DNA of 40,599 nucleotides, taken from the IMG/VR virus record IMGVR_UViG_2537562012_000007, positions 1 through 40,599 of that record, one strand, 5' to 3'. The notes beneath the pieces are model-generated. The model was not told the origin of the DNA. It made no database searches and worked only from the letters and a program-made list of their open reading frames with translations. Shown one piece after another: positions 4,360 through 17,333 of this stretch; positions within the stretch are counted from its first letter, which is position 1, and every line of letters begins with the position of its first letter. The translations under genes were made by a program, and so were the position numbers. This DNA is from a virus (Duplodnaviria; Heunggongvirae; Uroviricota; Caudoviricetes).

Positions 4360-4533
4360 TATCGCGTCCTCAACAATGAATTTTGTGATGCGGTGCCTGG
4401 TGCCTCCAGGTGACGTTAACCAGTTAACAATTAACGCCGGATACAGAGAACCCACCCATAACACTGTTTTTGGTTTTAACTGTTCCGCGTGCGCTTAGCC
4501 GCATTCACCGCATCACAAAATTCACTTTAAAAA

Positions 4534-4586
4534 GGGCGGCAGAGCAGTCACGGAGTAAAACTGATACCGCTAAACGCCACCAGAAA
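4534..4586 (-). ncRNA. dicF: DicF small regulatory RNA
   Basis: Minus-strand 53 nt TTTCTGGTGGCGTTTAGCGGTATCAGTTTTACTCCGTGACTGCTCTGCCGCCC followed by a T-run; differs at about 2 positions from my recollection of E. coli DicF; lies immediately upstream of dicB as in Qin. Confidence 0.75.
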
Positions 4587-8915: not shown

Positions 8916-9371
8916 GTGGCAAAAGTTTTTACACAAGAAGAGCGGGAAAAAATTAAAGGGCAGGTTGTTGAACTCGTACGCCAGAGTGGGCGCGAGACGT
9001 TACGACAACTGGAAACTAAAACTGGGGCAACAAGATATCTGATGAGCGTTCTGGCCAGAGAGCTGGTTGCCAGTGGCGATGTATACAACTCTGGTTACGG
9101 GTTATTCCCGTCTGAACAGGCGCGTAAGGACTGGCAAAATGCCCGTAAAAAGCTCTCAAGGGCAAAGCTGAAGAAACCATCTGCGGTTGATCCGGACCTT
9201 ATCTGGTCATTACCTGACGGAGAAATACGTCGCTACGACAGGCGTCAGAACATAATCTGTCGCGAGTGCCGGAAGAGTGAAGCTATGCAGCGTGTACTGG
9301 CATTTTACCAGAATGGTTTTCGAGAGACATTCGGTGAACAGGTTGTGCATGAGGGAAATCATGGCGCTTAG
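8916..9371 (+). CDS. Hypothetical protein (151 aa), replication module
   Basis: GTG start with AGGAGG 5 nt upstream; no recognisable domain. Confidence 0.5.
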   Translation: MAKVFTQEEREKIKGQVVELVRQSGRETLRQLETKTGATRYLMSVLARELVASGDVYNSGYGLFPSEQARKDWQNARKKLSRAKLKKPSAVDPDLIWSLPDGEIRRYDRRQNIICRECRKSEAMQRVLAFYQNGFRETFGEQVVHEGNHGA

Positions 9372-9799
9372 GCAATTGTGTAGACGCGTTGACGGTCGAA
9401 AGCATAGGAGGGTTGATTGATCGTTCTAGTTATGCTGTCAGAGCGAAAGCGCAGGAACTGGGTATCAATAGGATGTTAAGAGGGGGGGGGGGTATAACCA
9501 ATCAAAAAAACATCCGCAAAGCGATATTGAGCTAGTGCGGAAGCTTCATCAGTGTGGAGTTCCCCGCCGTGATATCGCTGTAAAACGCGAAATGTCCTTG
9601 GGCATGATTAATCAGTACGTTTATTTCGACAGGAGAGCGCATGAAGTTTGACATCTAGACAACTGGGGGAGCGCTGAAAACGTTCTTAATTGATGTTGGA
9701 TTCGCTTTACATACTGAACTGTTTGGCTGAAAGACACGGTAGTATCACCAATCAAGGTGCTTTTGATAAACGCTTGTGTGTTTGTTTTTTAATCCATTG

Positions 9800-9828
9800 T
9801 TGACAACTAGGTTAGTTTTCCATATCAT
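9800..9828 (+). promoter_or_regulatory. Sigma70-like promoter upstream of the ParA-like gene
   Basis: TTGACA (9800-9805), 17 bp spacer, TATCAT (9823-9828). Confidence 0.5.
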
Positions 9829-9858
9829 CAATAAAAGTGTAAAACTAATGGTGGCGAT

Positions 9859-10905
9859 ATGACTAGTGAATCAAATGTTAATGCTCTGATAGAGCGTCAA
9901 TTCGAAGTTGCTGACGGTAATGTAAGAAGTCTTAATTTGCCGAAATATGATAAATATACAGTATGTAATTTACGGGGAGGCATTGGTAAGACATCTTTAA
10001 CTTTTAATCTGTCATATTTGGCGGATAACGCATTAATCGTGGATACGTGCCCGCAAGGAAATTTATCATATTTTTTTGACAATAATTATGCATCTTCGTC
10101 TAGCACAACTGCAAATGACCTCTTAATGCCTTATTTTGTTCCAGGGCTTGGATTTGCAACGCGTGCTGCAAAGCTAGTATCATCAACTAATGCTTGGTTT
10201 GCGGGCAAGAATAACTATTTTATTCAATCTGATAGTCAACTTTATCTTCTACCTACGCAAATGGCGAATGCTCTGGCTCAAGCCAGAACAATTTCTGGGG
10301 CTACTCAGCAGGTTGTTATTGATACAATTCTTTTTTCTCTGAAGAAAGAAATAGCCAGAGAAATGGTTGAAACTGGTACTACAAAAGCGTTAATTGATAC
10401 ATCACCTTTTTTCTCTGGAGCGACGCATTTATCTTGGCATGCAACAGATGCTTTAATAGTTCCAGTGAGGACAGATCAGCAATCGATTAATTCATTAAGA
10501 TTACTTATTGATACTCTGACTAAACCAACATCAGAATTTAGAAAGATAATGCCGTCTGATGGCCATACACCAAAAATTCAGATGGTGGTTATTACCCATT
10601 GCGGATGGTCAACAGTGGCAGGAGCAAGGAATAAACCAAATCAACAGACAAAAATGTACATCGAAGCTGTAAGAGAGGTAATTCGACAAAATATTAGTAA
10701 TTTTACAACAGATGATCCTAATAATCACATTGTGATTCTTGATGATTTTCTGGGTAGTGGCAGAATGTCAAGTGCTAAGTCTAAACCATTAGAGTTGTTA
10801 AATCCAGGAGATGCAATGACTGTGAATAGAGTTAGGACATCCGTGAATTTATCTGTTAACAAAATAAAAAATGAATTAAAGTTCATTCACAACTCCATAT
10901 GGTAA
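9859..10905 (+). CDS. ParA/MinD-family P-loop ATPase with C-terminal extension
   Basis: Deviant Walker A CNLRGGIGKTSLT followed by DTCPQGN, as in ParA/Soj; 348 aa; markedly AT-rich codon usage by eye relative to the phage backbone. Confidence 0.75.
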   Translation: MTSESNVNALIERQFEVADGNVRSLNLPKYDKYTVCNLRGGIGKTSLTFNLSYLADNALIVDTCPQGNLSYFFDNNYASSSSTTANDLLMPYFVPGLGFATRAAKLVSSTNAWFAGKNNYFIQSDSQLYLLPTQMANALAQARTISGATQQVVIDTILFSLKKEIAREMVETGTTKALIDTSPFFSGATHLSWHATDALIVPVRTDQQSINSLRLLIDTLTKPTSEFRKIMPSDGHTPKIQMVVITHCGWSTVAGARNKPNQQTKMYIEAVREVIRQNISNFTTDDPNNHIVILDDFLGSGRMSSAKSKPLELLNPGDAMTVNRVRTSVNLSVNKIKNELKFIHNSIW

Positions 10906-11250
10906 ATGACATTTTATTTGAATAATCTGGATTGATAATCATTGTTACATTAATTGTTATTAATTCTAAATAATCCTATCGTTCTTCAGGATGAGATAAT
11001 TTATATTTATTTGTGTTGTGATTTTTTGAATTTATTTAGGTTTATGAACTGTTTTAGATGAAATGAATCATGAATACGAAATTGTTGCGGTACTGATAAC
11101 GAGGAAAGACCTCTGCGAGGTACGAATCCGAACCGGCCAGACGGAGGTCGCTGTCTTCACAGCTTACGAACCTGAGGAGTAAGAGACCAGGCGAGGGAGA
11201 AATCCCTCGCCACCTCTGATGTGTCAGGCATCCTCAACGCACCCGCACTT

Positions 11251-11273
11251 AACCCGCTTCGGCGGGGTTTTTA
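11251..11273 (+). terminator. Rho-independent terminator
   Basis: ACCCGC-TTCG-GCGGG stem-loop followed by a T-run. Confidence 0.6.
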
Positions 11274-11355
11274 TTGGTTGACAAAATTATGAATATGCAC
11301 CAATATCTTGGTTGACAAAAGTCGTTTTTTGCACGGATTAGGCGGAGAAGTGTCT

Positions 11356-11949
11356 ATGCAGAACCATCCATTCCCTTGGGAGTTCTTTCCTGAGTTAACA
11401 GAGGAGCGTTTAACCATTATAGCTGAGGAGTTGCTCAGGATACAGGATATTACTCATGAGTTATTGTCATCGCCCTATGATGATAATTACACTCGTGGTG
11501 GTTGTACATTTGGGCGTCAGCGGCAGGCGTTGCTACAAATGTGCGTACGAAAGACATATGACTGGTTAAGACTACTTAATCCTGGCATGGATCTTACGTT
11601 TTCAATTGGGAATGTCCCTATTCGTTTCTTTACTGATGACGCAGATAACCCCAAGAAACGCGGTTTTTTCAAAAGAAATGATGCTGATCGACTCTTCGAG
11701 TCAGAGGAGACTACTCCAACTATGCATCGCTTTGTGGTTGAAAAGCCTGAATTTGAAGGCGAGGGTGGTAGAGTCATTTTTAATGGCTATAACGTGTTTG
11801 GTGAGATCGTGTCAACTTGGACATATGGTGCGGACCGTGTTGTTATGCTGAACTCTGTCGATGATGTACCTCCAGCACCGGTACCTATCGAACTAGAACC
11901 TATCAGTGCGTCTAAGACTGAGAAGGAAAAGAAACAAAATAGCAAATAG
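11356..11949 (+). CDS. Hypothetical acidic protein (197 aa), accessory cassette
   Basis: ATG at 11356 with GGAG RBS; the TTG at 11308 used by the track lies inside a promoter-like repeat; no recognisable domain. Confidence 0.6.
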   Translation: MQNHPFPWEFFPELTEERLTIIAEELLRIQDITHELLSSPYDDNYTRGGCTFGRQRQALLQMCVRKTYDWLRLLNPGMDLTFSIGNVPIRFFTDDADNPKKRGFFKRNDADRLFESEETTPTMHRFVVEKPEFEGEGGRVIFNGYNVFGEIVSTWTYGADRVVMLNSVDDVPPAPVPIELEPISASKTEKEKKQNSK

Positions 11950-11959
11950 TGGGTGAAAT

Positions 11960-13081
11960 GTGTTTAACGGTACTAATTTAAGACTTGCTCGTCTGTATCA
12001 CGAGCTATCTCTGGAGCAGGTTGCTGAGAAGGTTGAAAAAACACGCCAGTATGTACAGCGACTGGAGTCTGGTTCAGCTACTCCATCCCCAGAGCTTATA
12101 AATAAATTAGCCGAGGTTTTGCGCGTGAAGCCCGCCTTTTTCGAAGGGCAGGAACATTCTCCTGTTAATGAAGAGATTGTACATTTTCGTAAACGCGCCT
12201 CGACAAGGATGTCAACGAAGCTATCAACACTCGCTAAGGCTGAGTTTTATCGTCGTTTTATTGATGTATTTGAAGATAACCTTAATTTGTCACCTGTTCG
12301 ATTTCCTGAATTTCGTGTCCATACACAAGAAGATATCGAGCGAGCGGCAGAAAAATGTCGTATTGAGTGGGGCTTAGGCTTTGGCCCAATTGAAAATATG
12401 ACTCGCCTTGCCGAGAAACTTGGGGCGTTTGTTACTTCATTTGACTCCGTTTCGGATGAAGTAGATGCACTGTCTGTTCCTCTACGAAGGCCTTTTATTG
12501 TTCGAAATACAGCTAAAAATTCACCTTGTAGGCAACGCTTTGATATTGCTCATGAGGTTGCCCATTTGATTCTTCATGAAGGAATTTCTACTGGGGATAG
12601 ATTAACTGAATCCCAGGCAAACCGTTTTGCCTCTGCTCTGTTGCTTCCCAGAACGTCGATGGCGAAATATTTTCCAAGACCTGTGGGGGGGAGGATAAAT
12701 TGGCAGGGACTAAGCCAATTTAAGTTGACATGGAAAGTAAGTAAGGCTGCCATTGTTTACAGGGCTCATCAATTAGGACTTTTGACTGATGAGCAGTACA
12801 GAACTGCATTTATGGGGTTGAAACGGAAAGGGGAAGCTATTGATGAAAAAGAAGATTATCTAATCCCTCATGAGCGTCCTGAGTTATTCCGTCGGGCTTT
12901 ATCGTTTTTATTTGAAGAGTTAGGATACGACCCACAGCGTATAGCTGATGAAATGGATATAGAAGTGGACATTTTTTATGAGTTAGTAGGAGATGATCTT
13001 CCTGCGGTTCATGAACTGCCAGGAAGTGGTGATGTTGTTTCACTACAATCTTACCGAACTCTTAGAGGCAAAATTCACTAG
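11960..13081 (+). CDS. XRE-family HTH fused to ImmA/IrrE-type zinc metallopeptidase
   Basis: N-terminal HTH (LRLARLYHELSLEQVAEKVEKTRQYVQRLESG), central HEVAHLILHE (HExxH) motif typical of ImmA/IrrE (COG2856-like); GTG start. Confidence 0.8.
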   Translation: MFNGTNLRLARLYHELSLEQVAEKVEKTRQYVQRLESGSATPSPELINKLAEVLRVKPAFFEGQEHSPVNEEIVHFRKRASTRMSTKLSTLAKAEFYRRFIDVFEDNLNLSPVRFPEFRVHTQEDIERAAEKCRIEWGLGFGPIENMTRLAEKLGAFVTSFDSVSDEVDALSVPLRRPFIVRNTAKNSPCRQRFDIAHEVAHLILHEGISTGDRLTESQANRFASALLLPRTSMAKYFPRPVGGRINWQGLSQFKLTWKVSKAAIVYRAHQLGLLTDEQYRTAFMGLKRKGEAIDEKEDYLIPHERPELFRRALSFLFEELGYDPQRIADEMDIEVDIFYELVGDDLPAVHELPGSGDVVSLQSYRTLRGKIH

Positions 13082-13085
13082 GCAT

Positions 13086-13108
13086 AACCCGCTTCGGCGG
13101 GTTTTTTG
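13086..13108 (+). terminator. Rho-independent terminator, near-identical to the one at 11251
   Basis: ACCCGC-TTCG-GCGGGT followed by TTTTTT; shares the core TAACCCGCTTCGGCGGG with 11249-11267. Confidence 0.65.
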
Positions 13109-13182
13109 TTTTACGTATTCTGGTTTACAATCTACAGGCCAGCCTGAACAACTGGCACCTGCTGCGCCAGCAGAGAAAACCG

Positions 13183-13455
13183 ATGGCGCACAATACCAAA
13201 CATCACAATTCTGATACCGACCTTGCCAGCTGGCACGGGCGGCGTTCTCATACATTCAAATATGACTGGTACCAGCATGCCCCATGCACTGAAGAACAGG
13301 CCGAATGGCTGATTCAGAACTACCGCAGGCGTGGGTACGACTTTCAGAAAGACCTCGGCCCTGACTTCCGACACTGGATAATTTCTGTCAGGCTCCCTTA
13401 TTCCGAACGCCCACCGCGTCCGTCCCGCACATTCCAGCAACGCATCTGGAGGTAA
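13183..13455 (+). CDS. Hypothetical protein (90 aa), nin-like region
   Basis: ATG-initiated ORF; no recognisable domain. Confidence 0.45.
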   Translation: MAHNTKHHNSDTDLASWHGRRSHTFKYDWYQHAPCTEEQAEWLIQNYRRRGYDFQKDLGPDFRHWIISVRLPYSERPPRPSRTFQQRIWR

Positions 13456-13456
13456 C

Positions 13457-14506
13457 GTGCGGGTATTACTTCGACCTGTTCTGGTGCCGGAACTTGGGGT
13501 GGTTATCGTTAAGCCAGGTCGTGAATCCATGCAGGTATTCCATAACGGCAGAGTGCTGGTTGAACCGGAGCCAAAAAGCATGCGCGGTCTGCCGTCCGGG
13601 GTCGTTCCTGCCGTTCGCCAGCCGCTGGCGGAGGATAAATCATTACTGCCATTTTTCAGCGATGAGCGGGTGATTCGTGCTGCTGGTGGTGCTGGTGCAT
13701 TGTCTGACTGGCTGTTGCGCCATATTAAATCCTGCCAGTGGCCACACGGCGATTATCATCACAGCGAAACCGTCATTCACCGTTATGGTACCGGCGCAAT
13801 GGTGTTGTGCTGGCACTGCGACAACCAGCTGCGTGACCAGACATCCGAATCACTCGAGCAACTTGCTCATCAAAACCTGTCAGCATGGATGATTGACGTC
13901 ATCGGTCACGCAATAAGCGGTACGCAGGAGCGTGAATTATCTCTGGCTGAATTATCCTGGTGGGCGGTCCGCAATCAGGTGGCGGACGCGCTACCGGAAG
14001 CGGTATTACGTCGTTCGCTGGGGTTGCGTGTGGAAAAAATCCGCTCCATGTACCGTGAAAGCGACATCGTACCGGGAGAGCAGACCGCCACCAGCATACT
14101 GAAACAGCGCACAAAAAATCTTGCGCCGCTGCCTCACGCCCACCAGCAACAGAACCCACCACAGGAAAAGACGGTGGTCAGCATTGCCGTTGATCCTGAG
14201 TCTCCGGAATCTTTCATGAAACGACCTAAACGTCGCCGCTGGGTTAACGAGAAATACACTCGCTGGGTGAAGACACAGCCGTGTGCGTGTTGTGGTAAGC
14301 CAGCCGACGATCCCCATCACCTGATTGGTCATGGTCAGGGCGGAATGGGGACAAAATCTCACGATATTTTCACGCTACCGCTGTGTCGGGAGCATCACAA
14401 CGAGCTTCATGCGGATCCGCTGGCGTTCGAAGAAAAGCATGGTTCTCAGGTTGATTTAATTTTTCGTTTTCTTGATCACGCCTTTGCAACTGGCGTGCTT
14501 GGGTAA
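13457..14506 (+). CDS. DUF968-like prophage protein (YdfU-like)
   Basis: 349 aa; C-terminal CxxC ... HH-rich region (CACCGKPADDPHHLIGHGQGG ... CREHHNELH) as in Qin YdfU-type proteins by recollection; GGAGG RBS before the GTG start. Confidence 0.55.
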   Translation: MRVLLRPVLVPELGVVIVKPGRESMQVFHNGRVLVEPEPKSMRGLPSGVVPAVRQPLAEDKSLLPFFSDERVIRAAGGAGALSDWLLRHIKSCQWPHGDYHHSETVIHRYGTGAMVLCWHCDNQLRDQTSESLEQLAHQNLSAWMIDVIGHAISGTQERELSLAELSWWAVRNQVADALPEAVLRRSLGLRVEKIRSMYRESDIVPGEQTATSILKQRTKNLAPLPHAHQQQNPPQEKTVVSIAVDPESPESFMKRPKRRRWVNEKYTRWVKTQPCACCGKPADDPHHLIGHGQGGMGTKSHDIFTLPLCREHHNELHADPLAFEEKHGSQVDLIFRFLDHAFATGVLG

Positions 14507-17023: not shown

Positions 17024-17099
17024 GGCCCTTTAGCTCAGTGGTGAGAGCGAGCGACTCATAATCGCCAGGTCGCTGGTTCAAATCCAGCAAGGGCCACCA
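17024..17099 (+). tRNA. ileZ: tRNA-Ile2-like (anticodon CAU)
   Basis: Manual cloverleaf: acceptor GGCCCTT/AAGGGCC, D-arm GCTC/GAGC, anticodon loop CTCATAA, T-loop TTCAAAT, CCA end; resembles E. coli tRNA-Ile2 more than elongator tRNA-Met by recollection. Confidence 0.8.
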
Positions 17100-17100
17100 A

Positions 17101-17177
17101 CCGCCACTAGCTCATCAGGAAAGAGCGTCAACCCTTTAAGTTGAGTGTGCGAGGTTCGAGTCCCCGGTGGCGGTCCA
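17101..17177 (+). tRNA. tRNA-like gene, anticodon apparently UUU (Lys-like), atypical
   Basis: Acceptor CCGCCAC/GTGGCGG, anticodon stem TCAAC/GTTGA with loop CCTTTAA (C at position 33), T-loop TTCGAGT, CCA end; D-loop lacks the usual GG. Confidence 0.55.
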
Positions 17178-17179
17178 GT

Positions 17180-17255
<76 letters not shown>

Positions 17256-17258
17256 TAT

Positions 17259-17333
<75 letters not shown>

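Follow-up and report, generated by a model that had tools for sequence, protein, structure and literature searches.

A GC-rich structured stretch in a Qin-like prophage is very probably the 3' half of a hok/sok locus

The locus studied here raises the question of what lies between gene 1 and genes 2 and 3 of a tailed-phage record, where a GC-rich stretch with several hairpins and a terminator interrupts AT-rich DNA. All positions refer to the window, i.e., the whole stretch of 40,599 nucleotides that was analysed (IMG/VR virus record IMGVR_UViG_2537562012_000007), unless another locus is named. A sequence-only reading had treated the three genes as one cassette and had interpreted the stretch as a small RNA, a processed 3' UTR of gene 1, or a leader peptide/attenuator controlling genes 2 and 3. 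It overlooked the identity of the element, which is a 5'-truncated hok gene, an ordinary prophage pseudogene that is already known and annotated as such in RefSeq, and neither a new small RNA nor a leader peptide. Very probably, the structured stretch is the 3' half of a hok/sok locus in which an incoming module with a ParA-like gene took the place of the front half.

Structure and identity of the GC-rich stretch

The features named in the sequence-only reading were all found, their positions being accurate to 1-2 nt. The GC content is 0.54 at 11100-11299 as opposed to 0.24 at 10900-11099, and the ATG-initiated ORF of 39 codons is located at 11063-11182 on the plus strand (39 aa, MNHEYEIVAVLITRKDLCEVRIRTGQTEVAVFTAYEPEE), with no GGAG-like Shine-Dalgarno (SD) sequence 5' of it on direct reading. 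In the minimum free energy (MFE) structure, the perfect 9-bp stem GGCGAGGGA-GAAA-TCCCTCGCC is formed at 11190-11211, as is the pairing of GACCTC (11108-11113) with GAGGTC (11144-11149). CTTAC (11163-11167) and GTAAG (11179-11183), which had been proposed as a further helix, are both present in the sequence but are unpaired in the MFE structure. The stretch ends in an intrinsic terminator with the stem CCCGC (11253-11257)/GCGGG (11262-11266), the loop TTCG, and a G followed by TTTTT at 11268-11272. The segment 11063-11275 folds with an MFE of -78.2 kcal/mol compared to -60.5 ± 4.4 kcal/mol for dinucleotide shuffles (z = -4.0), and none of the 200 shuffles was equally stable. Its structure exceeds chance because it has inherited the structure of a hok mRNA.

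This origin is evident from the homology searches. When 11040-11300 was compared with phage records by blastn, 102 matches with up to 97.8% identity were obtained, all of which start at 11081 or 11088, end at about 11254-11276, and sit under features annotated as hok, mok, gef, hokW/mokW or "host killer protein". The segment from about 11081/11088 to 11275 is 95-98% identical to the 3' half of the hokD/gef/hokW loci of lambdoid prophages, and in alignments with PPompW gef, Rac hok, 933W hokW and three E. coli prophages, the similarity is confined to the last ~190 nt of hok, with unrelated AT-rich DNA 5' of ~11081-11088. At the protein level, 30 of 33 residues of the ORF (91%, BLASTP) are identical to HokD residues 19-51, and six unrelated residues stand in place of HokD residues 1-18. 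The Pfam family HOK_GEF (PF01848) matches the ORF with an E-value of 2.8e-16, only over positions 14-42 of the 42 in the profile, and the PHROG family of MokW-like host killing proteins matches with 2.2e-17. The coding remnant of the hokD/gef type at 11081-11182 (+) comprises HokD codons 19-51 and the stop codon, a pseudogene without its N-terminus. In the RefSeq-annotated E. coli locus L004, which is 99.9% identical to the window, the corresponding positions (4482-4583) carry a PGAP pseudo-CDS described as "Hok/Gef family protein; incomplete; missing N-terminus". Of 5,426 complete E. coli genomes, 14 carry this "missing N-terminus" pseudogene, all with the ParA-like arrangement; among the carriers are ETEC TW10598, B2C, FMU073332 and UMNF18. 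Homology to part of the locus is significant at both the nucleotide and the protein level, the start and the regulatory elements are absent, and nothing contradicts the identification as a hok remnant.

The GC-rich island and its hairpins consist of what remains of hok, namely 33 codons, the stem-loop of the 3' UTR, fbi and the terminator. The ORF at 11063-11182 is chimeric, with six unrelated codons (MNHEYE) from the inserted DNA in frame with the hok remnant; its ATG comes from the incoming DNA and is in frame by chance. The hok coding-region hairpin GACCUCUGC...GGAGGUC (11108-11149, +) is formed in the MFE structures of both the remnant and the intact hok locus, and the 3' UTR stem-loop GGCGAGGGA-GAAA-UCCCUCGCC lies at 11190-11211 (+). 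The processed hok mRNA is described as having a last stem-loop 8-30 nt past the stop codon which protects it from 3' exonucleases (PMC9841398), and by its position the 11190-11211 hairpin appears to be the equivalent of this stem-loop. It is followed by the terminator hairpin and T-tract (11253-11272), the complete hok terminator AACCCGC-TTCG-GCGGGG-TTTTT extending over 11251-11275 (+). The fbi-like (fold-back inhibitory) segment CCUCAACGCACCCGCA at 11232-11247 (+) is orphaned, its 5' tac partner being deleted. In the intact locus L007, the MFE structure joins the equivalent segment (2943-2958) to the 5' end (2565-2579), and this predicted fold agrees with the published concept of the tac/fbi fold-back of hok mRNA (PMC9841398); the long-range pairing was not found in the window, where the counterpart of L007 2565-2579 is absent. 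A CAG/CUG mini-hairpin with the loop CUUACGAAC is located at 11160-11174 (+; RNAalifold consensus pairs 61-75, 62-74 and 63-73). Its UUACGAA loop holds the Tyr codon UAC, which corresponds to HokD Tyr46, and the motif persists in the pseudogene. As A-to-I editing by TadA is reported for codon 46 in the mRNAs of hokC/D/E (bioRxiv 10.1101/2025.08.07.668861), we infer that this hairpin contains the editing position.

The 5' part of hok appears to have been replaced and not just mutated. A local alignment of 10906-11087 with the 5' 240 nt of the intact hok locus scored 16 as opposed to 15.3 ± 1.9 for shuffles, and an internally deleted hok was ruled out, since the residual homology 5' of the breakpoint is no better than in shuffles. 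A 9/12 match of ATGAATCATGAA to the hok start ATGAAGCAGCAA was treated as chance. The Rfam sok family (RF01794) is detected in intact loci, with 118.6 bits in L007 (2568-2743) and 113.5 bits in L003 (933W), whereas it gave no match at the gathering threshold in the whole window, or at E <= 10 in 10850-11400. Neither a mok start nor an SD lies upstream of or overlapping hok, the DNA 5' of 11081 being AT-rich and unrelated, and there is no complete Hok toxin ORF of ~50 aa with an N-terminal membrane helix and a C-terminal domain. The longest apolar run of the ORF is 7 aa compared to 20 aa in HokD, which is too short to span a membrane. The remnant therefore lacks the promoter of hok and its tac/ucb leader, sok together with the Sok target, the start of mok, the SD and ATG of hok, and most of the membrane helix (18 of ~20 residues).

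Compared with 11 other hok alleles, T 11091, A 11096, A 11194 and G 11267 are private to the remnant. Four mismatches to all intact alleles are grouped in 11081-11104, the 24 nt to the right of the junction, and are also found in the IMG/VR contig L019, which shares the junction. Further mismatches of the remnant lie at 11081-11090, the junction-proximal ones being common to L019. The T-tract of the terminator begins at 11267 with a G that is seen only in the window and not even in the 99.9% identical L004. A scan of IMG/VR for the junction variant, as a possible diverged intact hok donor, gave only contigs with the same ParA-hok junction.

Modules around the hok remnant

Gene 1 (9859-10905, +) encodes an orphan ParA-like ATPase (Pfam AAA_31, E 8e-10; PHROG ParA-like, E 2.8e-30) with a GC content of 33-42% in 200-nt windows, and a near-consensus promoter-like site, TTGACA-17-TATCAT, is located 5' of it at 9800-9828. 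The DNA unique to the ParA-like module extends over ~9312-11080 and includes the AT-rich spacer (24% GC) at 10906-11080 (+), whose right end is the breakpoint inside hok. Gene 1 occurs in 14 of the 5,426 complete E. coli genomes, each time together with the truncated hok, and the 14 genomic copies of the remnant are 99.9% identical. It was also observed in 5 IMG/VR contigs. No relatives of gene 1 were found in the phage records, and its sole relative among 185,579 GTDB species-representative genomes is 59% identical and stands alone, with no partner gene, hok or similar spacer. L019 contains an identical ParA-like gene and an identical hok junction, followed by rem rather than by rmrTA, and in this second backbone the length of the 39-codon ORF is kept.

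Genes 2 and 3, rmrT (11356-11949) and rmrA (11960-13081), form a Rosmer defence/toxin-antitoxin (TA) pair on the plus strand (11356-13081). PADLOC, whose Rosmer model consists of the two components RmrT and RmrA, gave E-values of 5.5e-93 for RmrT (197/198 positions) and 4.3e-201 for RmrA, and the Pfam domains HTH_3 and Peptidase_M78 were found. The order is that of Rosmer (RmrTA), with the predicted toxin RmrT followed by the predicted antitoxin RmrA (HTH and M78/ImmA peptidase). With at least 99.5% identity, rmrTA is present in 23 of the 5,426 complete E. coli genomes, nine of which lack gene 1; in all three examined of these nine, an intact hokD lies directly 5' of rmrTA with the same 174-nt spacing. 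One such arrangement, L007, is 99.64% identical to window 11088-13599; there are 9 differences over these 2,512 nt, 5 of them within the first 188 nt. Since each occurs without the other (14 versus 23 genomes, and gene 1 without genes 2-3 in L019), gene 1 and genes 2-3 are modules independent of each other, and the idea of a single cassette has to be abandoned. A three-gene system was likewise ruled out by the independent distributions; the PADLOC matches for gene 1 were only weak. In strain G6/7 (L022), the same slot holds a diverged rmrTA allele (RmrT E 4.6e-25, RmrA E 6e-105).

Between the hok terminator and the start of rmrT, two direct repeats of TTGGTTGACAAAA, each with TTGACA, are located at 11274-11286 and 11308-11320, 34 nt apart, and TGGTTGACAAAA, which is similar to TTGGTTGACAAAA, follows the terminator of the diverged rmrTA locus L022. 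The TTGGTTGACAAAA repeats are candidate promoter/operator sites for the HTH protein RmrA.

The window represents the nin region of a Qin/PPompW-like lambdoid prophage, with a replisome organiser, DUF977, the hok region, a small ORF, ydfU/DUF968, rusA, Q and tRNAs. In related prophages, the order is DUF977 - cargo A - hokD - cargo B - small ORF - ydfU, with QueH, Paa/AdfO, hypotheticals or relBE (K-12) as cargo A, and none, rem, HTH+ImmA/IrrE or rmrTA as cargo B. The hok 3' end is present in 4,734 of the 5,426 genomes, nearly all of which lack rmrTA. The ancestral order would then have been DUF977 - variable cargo - intact hok/sok - variable cargo - small ORF - ydfU (DUF968) - rusA - Q, into which recombination would have imported the low-GC ParA-like gene with its AT-rich tail and replaced everything 5' of hok codon ~19. 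Judged from these arrangements, the truncation appears to have arrived with the ParA-like module, and the hok 3' end appears to be the shared boundary at which modules reassort.

Other RNA genes of the window were also recorded. The DicF sRNA at 4534-4585 (-; Rfam RF00039, 68.6 bits) fits a Qin-like prophage. Four phage-borne tRNAs (Met-CAT, Lys-TTT, Thr-TGT and Gly-TCC) are located at 17024-17333, downstream of the Q antiterminator region, and the tRNA/tmRNA scan of the window found nothing beyond these four. The tRNA sets of related prophages differ, with Met-Lys-Arg in PPompW and Ile-Thr-Gly in strain 504239.

Two copies of the terminator core ACCCGCTTCGGCGGGTT, in direct orientation, flank the rmrTA pair. 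The left copy (11251-11268) belongs to the hok terminator, and the second (13086-13103, +) marks the right end of the rmrTA cargo. Four cargos downstream of hokD lie between two ACCCGCTTCGGCGGGTT copies, namely rmrTA, its diverged allele, an HTH+ImmA/IrrE pair and a 130-aa hypothetical protein, three of the four being unrelated to one another. The copies are located at 2671/4020 in L005, 2962/4797 in L007-L009, 871/1536 in L021 and 871/2706 in L022, and the empty site L006 has a single copy at 2671; the sequence past the second copy is the sequence past the single copy of the empty site. None of the four bracketed cargos encodes a recombinase gene. The rem cargo and the cargo of L023 have no second copy. 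The hok 3' end may persist as a module boundary rather than for what it encodes, with the ACCCGCTTCGGCGGGTT hairpin serving as a specific insertion or recombination anchor for small promoter-gene-terminator cassettes, among them defence systems like Rosmer, an idea that we put forward tentatively and regard as rather unlikely.

Present role of the remnant

At present, the remnant is probably a passive 3' UTR and terminator of the ParA-like transcript. A passive role is the most likely one because promoter-like sites are absent from the plus strand at 10538-11463, terminator-like sites are absent from 10905-11253, and a good promoter-like site lies 5' of gene 1. ParA-like transcripts would traverse the remnant and end at the hok terminator, which would insulate the downstream rmrTA promoter region. 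Of the proposals of the sequence-only reading, the processed 3' UTR of gene 1 comes closest to this; its position fits, with no terminator-like site between the stop codon of gene 1 at 10905 and 11253. In a weaker variant of the boundary reading, the remnant may act as a stabilising 3' UTR for the ParA-like mRNA.

It is improbable that the remnant now serves as a co-opted functional RNA, either as an independent sRNA or as a stable fragment derived from the 3' UTR of the ParA-like mRNA and stabilised by the hok stem-loops. The significantly stable fold (z = -4.0) and the retention of the remnant in two backbones are consistent with such a role. In addition, the relF part is the most abundant fragment of the relBE-hokD/relF co-transcript in K-12 (PMC3598666), and the hok 3' structure can thus give stable 3' fragments. 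However, the structure is fully explained by inheritance from hok, no Rfam 15 family matches at the gathering threshold (the best sub-threshold hit, rsmX, reaches 19.3 bits as opposed to 56 and is driven by the terminator), and no target or seed region is evident. An sRNA gene, as proposed from the sequence alone, would also have to be transcribed from the plus strand, on which no promoter-like site was found upstream. The 14 genomic copies are 99.9% identical and therefore give no independent sign of selection.

The pairing pattern of the hairpins had been named as a further means of deciding on a functional RNA. In 11 hok 3' halves, the pairs of the 11108-11149 hairpin are almost invariant, and covariation in these coding-region helices is uninformative either way. 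The 3' UTR hairpin at 11190-11211 does show compensatory changes: the window has A-U where Rac has G-C, and L019, with GGCGGGAGA/UCUCCCGCC, differs from the window by two compensatory changes and retains perfect pairing. The original covariation work on hok mRNA reportedly described a conserved architecture, consistent with double changes in the 3' UTR hairpin. The compensatory changes do not point to a new function in the remnant, since alleles of this kind are also found in intact hok, e.g. hokW. The L019 alleles match the hokW type and may have been imported by recombination from an intact hok, rather than selected in the remnant.

It is very improbable that the truncated Hok peptide is translated and active, be it as a residual toxin or as a dominant-negative modulator of other Hok toxins. 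Over the 33 C-terminal residues, the identity to HokD is 91%, with the conserved Cys and the codon context of Tyr46 preserved, and the reading frame is open in the window as well as in L019, the two known versions of the remnant. However, Hok is described as a small hydrophobic toxin of the inner membrane whose translation needs the translation of mok (PMC9841398), and the remnant has neither an SD nor mok-coupled translation and retains 7 apolar residues of the ~20-residue membrane segment. Since SD, mok coupling and membrane helix are all missing, the 39-aa peptide is unlikely to be made or to act: the absence of an SD suggests that it is not translated, and the short apolar run that it would be incapable of membrane insertion.

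That the 39-codon ORF and the hairpins form a leader peptide/attenuator of read-through into rmrTA is hardly credible; a short ORF followed by a terminator does lie directly upstream of rmrTA, but the ORF has no SD with its start, the remnant and the operon do not co-occur consistently (L019 has the remnant followed by rem, the three examined rmrTA genomes without gene 1 have a complete hokD with identical downstream sequence in its place, and most genomes with a hok 3' end have no rmrTA), rmrTA has an upstream region of its own with the two TTGGTTGACAAAA repeats and their TTGACA, and Rosmer as defined in PADLOC comprises RmrT and RmrA only.

Significance and comparison with known hok loci

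Loci of the hok type are found in most E. coli genomes and are enriched in prophages (bioRxiv 10.1101/2025.08.07.668861). The truncated copy described here is of little importance in itself, and the standard annotation pipeline already flags it as a pseudogene. It is a caution that fossil pieces of structured toxin mRNAs can mimic a novel structured RNA with a small ORF and a terminator if no homology searches are made. The wider interest is modest and lies in the hok neighbourhood and in the duplication of the terminator around the downstream cargos: the flanks of hok are cargo slots for defence/TA modules, with relBE, the ParA-like gene, QueH and Paa upstream, and rem, Rosmer and HTH+ImmA/IrrE downstream.

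The hokD of the K-12 Qin prophage, also known as relF, the third gene of relBEF, shares with the window both the prophage framework (hokD - rem - small ORF - ydfU) and the type of hok allele, with 96% identity over 11088-11275. Its upstream cargo is relBE instead of the ParA-like gene, and a comparison of L015 (1068-1140) with L007 (2724) shows that relBE replaced the whole sok/mok/tac leader, the homology to L007 starting only 14 nt 5' of the hokD ATG. In K-12, hokD/relF is co-transcribed with relBE, and the hok RNA arises solely as the 3' portion of the transcript of the upstream operon (PMC3598666). However, K-12 Qin keeps the SD and the full 51-aa toxin ORF, whereas in the window the break falls within the ORF, at codon ~19, and has destroyed the toxin. 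With its different breakpoint, K-12 Qin provides an independent precedent for the erosion of the 5' side of hok by a cargo.

The intact lambdoid loci, i.e., 933W hokW/sokW, PPompW gef, Rac hok/mok and L007-L009, show 90-98% nucleotide identity to the window over the last ~190 nt. They share with it the C-terminal codons, the 3' UTR hairpin, fbi and the terminator, the latter with the exception of 933W. In contrast, the ~240-nt 5' part of these loci, with the sok match, the mok start, the hok SD and ATG and the codons of the membrane helix, has no counterpart in the window. The 3' end of the remnant also has the architecture of hok/sok (parB) of plasmid R1, the reference type I toxin-antitoxin system, in which the stop codon is followed by the protective stem-loop ~8-30 nt further on and by fbi, which folds back on the 5' tac (PMC9841398). 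However, hok/sok of R1 is a complete, regulated killer system, whereas the window contains a non-functional fragment of its chromosomal or prophage relative of the hokD type.
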